From Lytechinus pictus (taxonomy: Eukaryota): a stretch of DNA of 64,000 nt. Location of the stretch: contig NC_087251.1 of assembly GCF_037042905.1 (NCBI RefSeq), forward strand, positions 25,546,001-25,610,000, read 5' to 3'. The position numbers and the translations under genes are program-made. Position 1 is the first letter of the stretch. Each line of letters starts with the position of its first letter. This document shows, piece after piece, positions 26,601-35,600 of the stretch. Under the pieces are notes generated by a model. That model ran no database searches. It worked only from the letters and a program-made list of their open reading frames with translations, and had not been told where the DNA came from.

Positions 26601-29600
26601 GAACCCCTCTCAGTCCACTTAGTTTGCAGAACAAACCACCGTTTGCCAATAGTGACATAAATATGCCAATAATGTTTTTCACGAATAAATTTGCAAATTT
26701 TATTCATGATAATAAAAAAAAATCATTATTTTCAGATTTTTTTAAATTCTGGCTTGTAGTTTATGTGCTAAAGAATGTGCGTGCCAAATTTGGGCGCGAT
26801 CGCGCGGGAACGGCGGCCGAGATCAGAAAGGGGCCATCATGCCTCCCAGTCCTCAATACATCTCAAATAGCCCAGTTCTTTTAGGGTTAACATGGTTAAG
26901 GTCAATTTGGCGTCCTAGATTGAACATTAATTTGGCACACCCCCCCCCCCCCGATTTGAAAGTCAATTTGGTTCCCTGGTTGAACATGAATTTGGCACTC
27001 CAGATGTGAATCATGAGTTATTTGGCGCCCCCCATGTGAATGAAACATAATTTTTCCGCCCCTGTCATACATCAAATTGGCGCCCCAAAGGTCGAACATC
27101 AATTCGGCACCCCCCCCCCCCGCGCCGAGTTTAGGTAAATTTGGTGCTCCCTTATTTCAGGTCAATTTGGCCCCCCCCCCCCCCCCGATCGAACATCAAA
27201 TTGGTGCTCTTTGTCCTTTATTACTTTTTTCTCTCTTTCGTTCTTCCCATCTTCTTTCCTTCCTTTTTTGCTCTTTTTATCTTTCTTCTTCATTTTTCCT
27301 TTTCTTTCTCCCCTTCCCTCCTAATTTTTCTTTCTCTCTTCTTTTCCTCCTCGTTTCTCTTTCTCTTCTCGTTTCCCTCCTTTTTTTCTCTCCCTTTTCT
27401 TTTCCCCTCTTTCCTTCCCTCTAAGCAAATCGTCACACATGACTCAAGATAACAACCACAAATGGATATCCAAGATATGAAATATATTCAATTCAATTCT
27501 TTATTCCATTTCCATTCAAAACATAATACAAAGTAATATAAAGTAATACAAATCAAGTACAATTTTACAGACGAGCATTCTTACTTCGTAAAACAAAACA
27601 AAAACACATGTAATATTGAGCATAAATGGAAATGAGGGGGTCCACTAAAGAGCAAAGCTTGTAAAGTGTGGATCCCCTTGGAAATGAAGAAAATATATGA
27701 AAATATATGATGAATATATATATATGAAAATATATGATGAATCACGCCGTCGATTATTGTTTATAATTATTTCTCAAATGCAAATACAAAGTGCTATACA
27801 TGCATTCTACCCATTCTGAGATCTAAATACTCAGTACATCAGTCTTCATAATTTTGGTCGACGGTTCGGGTAAAAAATATCAGTTCTACTTTGATGAAAA
27901 TTACGCTACATTATAATACACTATTTTTAGATAAGAAAGATACGTGAATTGTGTGTCCAGGGGCTCGATCTTGGAAAGGGAACATGTTTTCCCATAATAA
28001 TAATGATAATAATAATGATGATAATAATGATGATGCATCACTTATATAGCGCATTCTCTCTGCGCTTTACAATAGAGAAAAGAAATACATATCACAATAA
28101 ATAGGCCTGTATATTGCAGCATTACTCAATATTTGAACATGCAAAGAACTCCATGAGTTGGTTACCAATGAAATGATTACGAATACTATTCCCATTTCCT
28201 TTCCGTCCACTCTGTCTTACCGTACAGGGCCCAATCGTATGCCAGCTTTTTAAATTGTGTTAATGTAACAAATAGATAAATAAACAAATAAATAAAAACA
28301 GATAAAACCTTGGAATGTGGATCAGGCTAAAAGTACAGACTTGTTTTATTTTCTTCAAATTCTTGTTGCAATAGAGATAATTTGAAAAGTCCATTGCCCA
28401 TATTAGTATTCGAACCCGCAACCTTGCTATTGTAAGTGTCAAGATTATCCCTTTGCACCACAATGTCGAGTTTTTCGAGCTTTTTAAAATTACTTTTTAT
28501 CTGGATTATTCTTGGTTTCTGGTGGTGTTGACGGGATTAACGGCGGGGTGAACCTTATATCGAAATTGGCTTTATGTTCTTCGAAGCTGGTTAGAGAGAC
28601 ATCGCCAGTTAGATTCATGTAGATAATGAAGACACCAACGTACTCTTTCTTGTCGTCAATGTAGGCCTAAGTTAGCGGTTGATGAGAGGGGGGGTCAGAG
28701 ATTGGTCAAAGGAAGGAAGGAAGGAAGGAGGGAAAGAAAGAAAGAAAGAAAGAAAGAAAGAAAGAAAAGAGAGAGAGAGAGAAGGAAGGAAGTAAAAGAG
28801 AGAAAGAAAGGAGGAATTATATAACGAGAGAGACAAAAAAGGGAAATAGATATTAAAAAATGTAAAGAAAAAATCATAAGAGTAATACAAATTTGCCCAT
28901 GTCATTTATAATTGCAAATCTTTCAGCCCCTCCAACAATTCGAATATAATGTCCTATTTGTGTCAAAATCCCCTCTTTTAGAGGTCTATCATTATCTTTC
29001 AAAGAATTTCGAAAATATAGACTTATTTTTTTGATAGACTCTTAACAATAAGCATTGTATCTGACTGCCTAGCAACCAACGGCGTAACATGGGACTAGGC
29101 GGGGGGGGGGGCTGACCAAACAAAATATTAAGCCCTTATCTGTTGCCCTTTACATTAAACGCAGAAAGTACGCTTGTATCTGCCTAGTTTGGGGTATAGT
29201 GGCGTTGTATTTTAGGTTTTATTTATGCTAACATGCATTTTACATCCCGTGTCTTGTTACGTATATACTTGATTAATTTAGAAACGTTTTATTTCATTAC
29301 ATGATTTATAACGACCACATATATATATATACATACATATATATAATTTTTTTTTAATGTAAGAACCTATCTCATTCATGATACAGCGCCTGAGATGACT
29401 TACCAGGATACAATACTTCGTACCAGCGACAATCTGGGTAGCAAATTGCAAAGGTTCCAAAGCTGTGAAGGGCTTGCCGGCTTTTTCTTGAGCTGCTTCT
29501 CGTACCTATGGACATGATGGATGTGTGCAATGTAAAGCATGATTATACACTTTTCCCTATACAATTTCCATTTTTCATATTAAACTATTTATTTTCGTTA

Positions 29601-32600: not shown

Positions 32601-35600
32601 TCAATTTAAACATATAATCTTTCTAAAACATATATAGAGAGAGATTGAAAAACTTATTAAAGAAAGAAACAAGCAAAAAGTAACACAAATTATGCATGTT
32701 ATGTGCGATTTCAAAATCTCGTGTATTAACCCTTTTATTGCGATGAGGCCAATACTTCTGTACATTAATAGAGATACAAGTTTTTTTTTACTATATGTAT
32801 ATATATATATATATATATACACAGGGGCGTCGATCCTTTTTTTAAGATTTGGGGGAAAAAATCATGAATCAACTTTCCAAATCGCTCGATATCACACAAA
32901 ACAAACAAACTCACACAAACACACACACACATATGCATATATATATTTATATGACTCATGAGATAGAAACACATATCTCACCAACAAATTAATGCAAGCG
33001 CGAAGCGCGAGTTGAAATTTTTTAGTATACTGACCTGAAAACAGGAAAAGGTGCCTGTTTAGGACTGTTTGTAGTAACTCATGAGGAGGATTATCTCACT
33101 ACACAGATAATGCGAGTGCCGAGGGCGAGCTGAAATTTCTTTATATTCTGACCAGAAAGCTTGATATTCTACATGTATGCATTTTTGGTACCAATGATTA
33201 AGATGGGTATCTAAAAAAAACAATAGATGCGAGCGCGAAGTGCGTGCTTAAAATTTTGATATTTCGATCTGAAAAAAATGACAGTTTAATGGACGTTTGT
33301 AATAAAGAACAAGATTATATCCAGCAAAAGATTATTGCAAATCGAAGCGGGAGTTCTTTTGACGCTTAGTCCTAAGTCCTAAGCTTAGTCCTTAGTCCGA
33401 CATCTGTCATTCTGTGGGAAACTGCCCCGCCCCAGTCCACTCTGTAAGGGCATGCGATAAGTTTTGTTATGACCATTCAACAATAAAATGTATAACCAGG
33501 TGCCGCTGATCATTCTTGACCGGCGCCGATCTAGATTTGGTTGACAATAGGCCTTTCTTCATTATTCTACCGGCGCCTATTTATTGGAACCAGGGGACGC
33601 TGATTATTCTTGACCGGCGCCGATTTAGAACAAGTAGTGCTGATTATTTTTACCGACGTCACGTAAGATTCAGGCAGCGGCAATTCATAATTGACTGGCG
33701 CCGATTTAGAACCAGGAGGCGCCGATTATTCTTGACTGGCGCCGATTTTTAACCAGGTGGTGCTGATTATTCTTGTCCGGCGCCGATTTAGATTTAGGTG
33801 GAGCTGATTATTCTTGATCGGCGCCGGTTAAGACTCAGGTAGCGCCGATTTATAACCAGATGGCGCTGATTATTCTTGACCAGCCCCGATTTAGATTTAG
33901 GTGGCGGGTGATTATCCTTGATCGGCGCCGGTTACGAACTCAGGCAGCGCCGATTTATAACCAGATGGCGCCGTTTATTCTTGCCCGGCGCCAATTTAGA
34001 TTTAGGTGGAGCTGATTATTATTGATCGGCGCCGGTTAAGACTCTGGCAGCGCCGATTTATAACCAGATGGCGCTGATTATTCTTGTCCGGCCCCGATTT
34101 AGATTTAGGTGGCGGGTGATTATCCTTGATCGGCGCCGGTTAAGAACTCAGGCAGCGTCGATTTTTCTGTACCGGCGCCGATTTATAACCAGATGGCGCC
34201 GAGTATTTTTATCTGGTGCCGATTTAGATTTAGGTGGCGCAGATTATCCTTGATCGGCGCCGGTTAAGACTCTGGCAGCGCCGATTTATAACCAAATGGC
34301 GCTGATTATTCTTGTCCGGCGCCGATTTAGATTAAGGTGGCGCTGATTATTCTTGATTGGCGCCAGTTATATGCAGGCAGCGCACTGCTGATTATTTTTA
34401 ATCGGCGAAGTTGTTGGGAAAAGGGTAGTTAAAAGAAAAGATAAGGAAGATGATATGATCGTGCTTTGCTGGGGGGATAGTCTTTCCTTACTGTTGCTTA
34501 TATTATATCAGTGTATAATTTTTTTAAGCGGCGCCTTTTCTTTTCTTTCCTTTATTTTTATTTTTTCAAGCAGCGCCTTTTCTTTCTTTTACTTTTCTTT
34601 CATTTTTTTTTGAGTGGCGCCTTCGGCGCCGCTAAATATTAGGGGGTGGGGGGGGGGCGCGCGCCCCCTGCGCCACCCCCCTGGATCCGCCACTGGACGG
34701 GGCTCATAAATTGCATTTCTAGATGTTGGCAGGTATAAAGCTATACCGTTTCATGTATTTGCTTCATAAAGTGATATTGATATGCTATATATATATATAT
34801 ATATAAAAATCAAGACATATCCAGTCAATAAATTTGCCAATAAAAATGTTTATTGCCTCAATTTTCGACGATATATCCTTCGTCTTCTTCAGGAGGAGTA
34901 AATGACAATGATCAGATCAATCACAATCATTATTTTGACCGGGGAACTCGATCTAAAGGGATTTTCATTAAGTCGCAAAATATGTCAAATAGGACTAAAA
35001 CATCGGGATTTTCTAATCCACAACACAACTACTTTAGAACATACACACTTTCATCATGTTCATGTAATCTAGTAATTAATTGGAATGGTCGATATTATTT
35101 TGCGATACGATTTGCGTGTCGAACTTACCTTATCATGAAGTCCTTGAAGCATGGTAACTTCTTCGCGAGGAAGACCTTCCACAGATTTCATCTCGCTCCA
35201 ACAACCACTGGATCCATGTATTTTCTTTTGATCTGAGTCTTGTTCTTGAGACATGATGAAGATTCGAAACCGCTTGGCGCTGGCGAGGTATCTGGCGTCA
35301 ACAAAAATTCTTCGAACCGTTTACGCAGGCATGAAAGAAAGAGCGAGACACTGGGAAAGATTGGCGTTCCACAAAATATTCAGTCGGCTTTATAATTACA
35401 GGATATAATGTAGATTAATTAAGAATTATTTGCAATAACATAAGTCAATGTAGGTTCAGAACCGAAACCCATTTTTTTTTACCCAATCAAAGAGCGCTAG
35501 ATGGTTGGCGTTTTAGTTTGTATTGACAGTGCGCATGTGTGCCTCTAGCACACACCCATAACCGAGGGCGCGGCAGATCCAAGATTTCTCGAAAGGGGAG

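Follow-up and report, generated by a model that had tools for sequence, protein, structure and literature searches.

A probable stefin gene lies antisense within an intron of a FUT8-like gene in the sea urchin Lytechinus pictus

Stefins, or type-1 cystatins, carry an N-terminal trunk at a conserved Gly and two hairpins, which together form a wedge that fills the active-site cleft of papain-family enzymes and is not cleaved. Complete intron-bearing genes on the opposite strand inside long introns of unrelated hosts are common in metazoan genomes. In human CSTB (stefin B), exon 2 comprises c.67-168, Val23-Lys56, as listed in Table 1 of PMC10814315, and a passage of PMC2784779 states that echinoderms have stefins and cystatins. 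Herein, we analyzed a 64-kb window (the whole stretch of DNA under study, C7:25546001-25610000) of the 812 Mb Lytechinus pictus assembly, in which the genome searches were made. The window holds a small minus-strand gene, LOC135154626, within an intron of a plus-strand FUT8-like gene. The original prediction, an earlier reading of this DNA, had proposed a hidden stefin gene at this place.

The coding part of the nested gene consists of three minus-strand exons (126 + 102 + 177 = 405 nucleotides, nt), which join into an open reading frame (ORF) of 134 codons plus TAA with 0 internal stops. Coding exon 1 (35129..35254, -, 126 nt) opens with the ATG at 35254 and encodes residues 1-42, comprising a hydrophilic N-terminal extension, the conserved Gly17, and the start of a helix. 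The MSQE start is common to the paralogues, and the exon ends at the same position, after K and before V, as exon 1 of the L. pictus cystatin-B-like paralogue. Intron 1 (29506..35128, -, 5,623 nt, phase 0, GT...AG) follows, with its donor GTAAGT from 35128. Coding exon 2 (29404..29505, -, 102 nt) encodes residues 43-76 with the remainder of the helix and the first hairpin, and its frame places QIVAG at residues 66-70, with codons at 29436-29422 on the minus strand. After intron 2 (28667..29403, -, 737 nt, phase 0), coding exon 3 (28490..28666, -, 177 nt including TAA) encodes residues 77-134 with the last strands, the second hairpin L-T-G, and a proline-rich tail of ~25 residues. The two donors are GTAAGT and the acceptors CATAG and CTTAG, with phase 0 at each joint. 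Reading the DNA confirmed the prediction on each of these counts, namely the three minus-strand exons, the GTAAGT donors, the phase 0 junctions, the intact ORF of 134 amino acids (aa), and QIVAG.

The spliced 134-aa product is identical, letter for letter, to RefSeq XP_063957498.1, entitled "uncharacterized protein LOC135154626" (Lytechinus pictus), and matches its paralogue with an E value of 3.2e-16; the gene model is real and not a product of chance. Because NCBI already annotates the gene, with the same model, as LOC135154626, it was not hidden, as had been claimed, but only unnamed. The coding part is surrounded by single-copy DNA, ~650 nt upstream and ~790 nt downstream. Within the upstream stretch, a putative TATA box, TATAAA (35389..35394, -), can be proposed 135-140 nt 5' of the ATG. 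The downstream AATAAA mentioned in the prediction is present (28345..28350, -, 140 nt beyond the stop); as a candidate poly(A) signal it carries little weight because 258 copies of the hexamer are present in the window. Two repeats lie in the introns: a minisatellite in intron 1 (33561-34369), with nested periods of 41, 103, and 208 bp and GCGCCGATT-rich units, and a GAAA-type microsatellite in intron 2 (28716-28816). No tRNA or Rfam family was found in the 64-kb window. A stretch just past the stop that looked tRNA-like was not confirmed. No second stefin copy was found in the window by tblastn.

The identity of the protein was assessed by sequence searches. With phmmer against the sequences of the PDB, 14 matches were obtained at E <= 10, and the top 7 were human stefin A or B (E 9.4e-07 to 3.6e-06). 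These alignments covered query residues 35-112, with QIVAG opposite the QVVAG of stefin A. Against 1.84 billion representatives, phmmer returned 61 matches at E <= 0.001, self counted, and the nearest non-self match was a 116-aa protein named cystatin-B-like, from L. pictus (46% identity) and L. variegatus. Pfam Cystatin was listed at E <= 0.001 in 36 of the 60 non-self matches, 31 of which reached the gathering score; PF00031 was unlisted in the other 24, two of which list only the related SQAPI family. In a language-model atlas, the nearest clusters were cystatin-A1-like and cystatin-B-like (0.89, a lead only), and the atlas's own model of the nested protein matched a Cystatin cluster with a template modelling (TM) score of 0.65. 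A PF00031 search of the L. pictus genome gave no match, but control genomes were equally silent and the search is uninformative. Many matches were multi-domain proteins, from fish or other organisms, with 2-16 stefin-like repeats, and the strongest non-urchin matches came from very long proteins in which 10-16 stefin-like domains stand in tandem. For example, a mudskipper protein of 1,411 aa had 12 Cystatin stretches, and a grouper protein of 2,371 aa had no Pfam match.

An AlphaFold2 (AF2) model built on a 14-row alignment had a mean predicted local distance difference test (pLDDT) score of 76.5, with values of 85-91 over residues 21-110 and disorder at both ends. Its secondary structure comprised a helix (30-51) and strands at 59-68, 70-78, 85-93, and 99-108. 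Foldseek against the PDB gave 6 matches at E <= 0.001, all of them stefins, the best being 1stf_I, stefin B in complex with papain (E 1.2e-05, TM(target) 0.75, root-mean-square deviation 1.8 Å, 93 columns). As modelled, the nested protein has the stefin architecture, a single helix lying against an antiparallel sheet. The invariant columns of the 14-sequence alignment were exactly G17, Q66, V68, and G70. The matches to solved stefins, the predicted fold like that of stefin B, and the cystatin-B-like nearest relative bear out the predicted stefin identity, and LOC135154626 is very probably a true stefin-family (type-1 cystatin) gene.

Several features lie outside this core. The nested protein has a 16-residue N-terminal extension and a 7-8-residue pre-helix insert, which was present only in urchin proteins among the 66 proteins compared. 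Its proline-rich C-terminal tail had a pLDDT of 47-57, and the relatives examined are without such a tail. The length of 134 aa in a single-domain protein is due to these extensions, the stefin domain itself being ~100 residues. Hydropathy gave no signal peptide: the first 30 residues had a mean Kyte-Doolittle value of -1.24 and 0 hydrophobic segments. A cytosolic location, as for other stefins, is expected since the N-terminus is hydrophilic and the protein is without a hydrophobic segment. Its only cysteines are residues 18 and 74, neither of them in the C-terminal part, which is where a passage of PMC12027202 locates the disulfides of type-2 cystatins.

To describe the host gene, stop-to-stop plus-strand ORFs of at least 48 aa were compared with Pfam (150 + 91), together with 30 picked minus-strand ORFs. 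Seven plus-strand ORFs matched consecutive parts of FUT8_N_cat: 20967-21215 (profile positions 105-163), 21661-21909 (162-201), 24482-24760 (199-281, E 1.7e-34), 40075-40362 (285-362, E 2.9e-27), 43914-44120 (363-421), 49921-50094 (421-474), and 50400-50792 (468-499, followed by an SH3 domain). The scan recovered no exons for profile positions 1-104, so the ordinal number that the prediction had given to the intron is tentative. Between profile positions 281 and 285, the matches are interrupted by the host intron (24735..40117, +), which is 15,383 nt long and in phase 1, with the donor GTAGGT and an acceptor formed by a T-run and CAG. It is flanked on the 5' side by the exon 24482..24734 (+), whose 5' limit is that of the open frame and not a mapped acceptor, and on the 3' side by the exon 40118..40362 (+), whose 3' limit is likewise that of the open frame. 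The host frame remains open across the joint of these two exons. The nested coding part (28490-35254) lies wholly inside this intron, antisense, with ~3.7 kb and 4.9 kb of intron to spare on either side. Thus, with flanking exons that match FUT8_N_cat and an open frame, the proposed location within an intron of a plus-strand FUT8-like gene holds.

Four FUT8 loci are present in the L. pictus genome, and C7 carries two of these as a tandem pair. The host locus (C7:25567039-25596088) is followed ~65 kb downstream by its tandem neighbour (C7:25633224-25670786), in which the homologous intron is ~1 kb, and the other two loci are C9:16146936-16181900 and C2:24264350-24291753, with homologous introns of 17 kb and 14.5 kb, respectively. 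Searches of the genome with stefin proteins found no stefin gene in these three other FUT8 loci. For the same exon, the host FUT8 scores below its tandem neighbour against the Pfam model (115.7 vs 150.3 bits).

The genome contains at least three stefin genes, namely the nested gene on C7, a cystatin-B-like gene on C4 (XP_054752923.1, C4:30.315-30.319 Mb), and a cystatin-A2-like gene on C4 (C4:11066246-11076315, +). The exons of the cystatin-B-like gene are 135, 102, and 111 nt long, both joints are in phase 0, and the boundary residues are the same as those of the nested gene; the first nine bases of exon 2 are identical in the two genes. With the +20 offset of the phmmer alignments, Val23-Lys56 of CSTB, the tabulated exon 2, corresponds to V43-L76, the span encoded by exon 2 of the nested gene. 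The three-exon, phase 0 stefin layout with a 102-nt middle exon, stated in the prediction, is therefore found in the L. pictus paralogue and, as far as exon 2 in Table 1 of PMC10814315 goes, in human CSTB. Since the intron positions are the same in the nested gene, its paralogue, and human CSTB, both positions would be ancestral. The nested copy has kept these ancestral introns, which argues for a duplication or relocation at the DNA level and against an origin from processed mRNA, as the prediction had proposed in rejecting retroposition. In the cystatin-B-like gene, the donor of intron 1 is GC (GCAAGT) in place of GT (C4:30318663-30318806, -). The urchin cystatin-A2-like stefins have QLVNG in place of QVVAG and a strongly hydrophobic N-terminal segment (15-residue hydropathy maximum of 2.67 at residue 22). 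Stefins do not usually have such a segment, which points to a membrane-anchored or secreted form.

A profile search recovered three proteins of Strongylocentrotus purpuratus: cystatin-B, cystatin-A2, and LOC115920035 (XP_030830767.1), which is unnamed, has 103 aa, and is encoded on a different contig from the other two. When 17 stefins from echinoderms and hemichordates were placed in a maximum-likelihood tree, a clade with support of 100/99 united the nested protein with LOC115920035, S. purpuratus cystatin-B, and both Lytechinus cystatin-B-like proteins. The order inside this echinoid clade was weakly supported (80/75 and 88/74), and LOC115920035 stood beside S. purpuratus cystatin-B (88/74), not beside the nested protein. 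Forcing the nested protein and LOC115920035 together cost 2.98 log-likelihood units, with p = 0.13 in the approximately unbiased (AU) test, and forcing the three cystatin-B proteins together gave an AU p value of 0.24. Orthology between the nested gene and LOC115920035 may be considered, being neither shown by the tree nor rejected by the AU test.

On this evidence, we favor the reading that LOC135154626 is a genuine, diverged cystatin-B-like paralogue, a DNA-level duplicate antisense in a FUT8 intron that likely encodes a cytosolic cathepsin inhibitor, and we give it a probability of roughly 0.7. An echinoid cystatin-B-like gene would have been duplicated as DNA with its introns kept. The copy now lies antisense in one of the four FUT8 paralogues, inside an intron of 15.4 kb, and has Gly17, QIVAG at 66-70, and a second hairpin (L-T-G) as parts of the predicted inhibitory wedge. 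Its most likely role would be to inhibit cathepsin L/B/H-type enzymes in the cytosol by competitive, tight, and reversible binding, as Gly17 and QIVAG both lie in a stefin core that was modelled with confidence. That the protein is a working inhibitor, as the model would have it, we hold to be somewhat better than an even bet. We infer the expression, inhibitory activity, and targets of the gene from its sequence. Of the functional, intron-containing nested gene put forward in the original prediction, the introns and the nesting are thus established, and the function is what constraint on the sequence suggests.

Several results weigh against this reading. In the Pfam comparison that the prediction had named as a check, the whole 134-aa protein matched 0 families at E <= 10. 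The single exons gave no usable match either, and exon 2 alone reached only 12.5 bits against Pfam Cystatin (PF00031; E 0.18), below the gathering cut-off of 22.2. The nearest paralogue, cystatin-B-like, also fell under this cut-off (19.9 vs 22.2 bits). We did not take the miss as an exclusion, because the Cystatin model is insensitive to the echinoid cystatin-B-like clade. Position 18 is Cys where most members carry the second Gly of a G-G pair, and the second hairpin is L-T-G, compared with L-P-G in human stefin A and L-D-G in the urchin cystatin-B-like protein, so that the Leu is conserved but not the Pro; Cys18 and this hairpin may alter affinity or specificity. Within its clade, the nested protein also sits on the longest terminal branch (0.85, vs a path of ~0.52 to L. 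pictus cystatin-B-like), and some acceleration is possible. A word-indexed search of 5.8 billion proteins, covering lengths of 73-235 residues, found only the protein itself among 3 candidates. Among the annotated proteins of L. variegatus, no orthologue was found, though the other two stefin genes have one there. Finally, the comparison with the cystatin-B-like paralogue gave non-synonymous (dN) and synonymous (dS) divergences of 0.40 and 1.36 and a dN/dS of 0.29 over 111 aligned residues, a ratio that pools both lineages and has dS near saturation, and the open frame is modest evidence.

The divergence of the protein could also be read as a change of function. The stefin fold would then have been neofunctionalised and would no longer serve mainly as a cathepsin inhibitor, with the extensions, above all the proline-rich tail, used for some other interaction; we consider this unlikely, though it stands up best among the alternatives. 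The long branch and the lack of any Pfam family are in keeping with it, as are the change of Gly-Gly to Gly-Cys, the altered second hairpin, and the ~25 extra low-confidence C-terminal residues that the paralogues do not have. The genome still contains a canonical cystatin-B-like gene at another locus, and such redundancy would permit change. However, the residues that weigh most for inhibition (G17, Q66, V68, and G70) are the very four invariant columns, the core superposes on the stefin B of the papain complex at 1.8 Å, and the relative-rate counts show no excess change: with each of 11 outgroups, 7-16 changes were unique to the nested protein and 10-15 to the paralogue, with a largest chi-square of 2.33 that was never significant.

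It is less probable still that LOC135154626 is an unexpressed or decaying duplicate without a biological role, its frame open by luck and caught by automatic annotation. Among the annotated proteins of other urchins, no orthologue turned up, and the RefSeq name is only "uncharacterized". In a simulation of neutral drift (substitution only, indels uncounted, 400 runs per divergence level), the frame was still open in 133/400 runs at 15% amino-acid divergence, so its neutral survival at low divergence is non-trivial. The number of open frames was 64/400 at 25% and 38/400 at 35%. At 50% divergence, however, only 7/400 runs were open, even with indels left out of the count, and about half of the residues of the nested protein differ from the paralogue without any stop or frameshift having arisen and with the four splice sites and the start intact. 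Identity to the paralogue at codon positions 1, 2, and 3 was 69, 70, and 47%, respectively; the far greater divergence of third positions speaks against decay, as does a dN/dS well below the value near 1 that the prediction had named as counting against it, measured here against a paralogue. The conserved columns, moreover, coincide with functional motifs. Taken together, the open frame, the dN/dS, and the unaccelerated counts favor the view that the gene would have been kept by selection.

We give equally little credence to a lineage-restricted, relocated stefin of an echinoid-specific clade marked by the N-terminal extension and pre-helix insert. Such a stefin would have gained a proline-rich tail of its own and a role or targets different from those of the housekeeping cystatin-B-like gene, and its antisense position would couple its expression to that of one FUT8 paralogue through interference or a shared chromatin domain.

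The flanks of the nested gene contain ordinary short interspersed repeats of 190-290 bp, with many genome copies at 80-96% identity (26000-26503, 27486-27698, 35910-36194, 36749-36939, and 37536-37800). Elsewhere in the genome, members of the 36749-36939 family often form nearby inverted pairs and resemble miniature inverted-repeat transposable elements. Capture of the gene by a transposable element was considered and rejected for lack of evidence, as no capturing element was seen in these flanks. No transposase or reverse-transcriptase Pfam domain was found in the intron ORFs scanned (plus-strand ORFs of at least 48 aa and 13 picked minus-strand ORFs). The host intron also carries a 239-bp unit in two tandem copies with 98% identity (38710-39190).

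Elsewhere in the window, ~27 tandem 5-bp units at 18802-18937 appear as a minus-strand AATAAA every 5 bases. Near the end of the window, a 1.3-kb tract (~61700-63000), purine-rich on the plus strand, has a GC skew of up to 0.85 and an AT skew of up to 0.84. It contains long stop-free frames on both strands, such as a Phe/Ser/Leu-rich frame of 325 residues (61737-62711), for which no Pfam match was found. This tract is low-complexity DNA, not a gene.

The practical gain is one of annotation: the RefSeq "uncharacterized protein" LOC135154626 can be named a stefin (cystatin-B-like) paralogue, and S. purpuratus LOC115920035 can probably be named likewise. The RefSeq gene model, the presence of stefins in echinoderms (as a passage of PMC2784779 has it), and nested antisense genes as a layout were already known. 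What is new here is the family name for a protein missed by Pfam, the evidence on its origin from intron positions, and the specific FUT8 host. A literature search found no paper on LOC135154626, the sea urchin cystatin literature yielded none on this gene among the matches listed, and a search on nested genes with FUT8, whose match concerned schistosome fucosyltransferases, found no description of a FUT8/stefin nesting in print. More broadly, one echinoid clade of the sea urchin stefin family escapes the Pfam model, and the conservation of introns from urchin to human documents an old gene structure. The locus also illustrates cleanly a nested gene whose arrival was at the DNA level, not by way of a retrocopy. 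The nesting arrangement itself is ordinary; interest in it would rise if expression were coupled to the host FUT8.

Among known systems, the nearest relative of the nested gene is the L. pictus cystatin-B-like gene, with 54 of 111 aligned residues identical. The two proteins share the MSQE start, the N-terminal extension, the pre-helix insert (G-L-P-x-E-E), and QxVAG in the first hairpin. In contrast, the cystatin-B-like gene is on another chromosome-scale contig (C4) and encodes a protein of 116 aa without the proline-rich tail. Its intron 1 is 1,345 nt long and its three exons span ~3.4 kb, whereas the introns of the nested gene are 5.6 and 0.7 kb. The protein is nearly invariant between L. 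pictus and L. variegatus, with 2 differences in 116 residues. LOC115920035 of S. purpuratus has no precomputed Pfam domain and shares with the nested protein several residues that are absent from the cystatin-B proteins. Human stefin B (CSTB) and stefin A (CSTA), of MEROPS I25A, have the conserved Gly and QxVxG in the same place and no signal peptide. On the exon limits tabulated for human CSTB, its intron positions also coincide with those of the nested gene, as do the count of three exons and the 102-nt length of exon 2. The nested protein is ~26-30% identical to these human stefins and differs in length (134 vs 98 aa), owing to its extension, insert, and tail. Compared with nested animal genes in general, the layout is the same, and the difference is the pairing of a stefin with FUT8.

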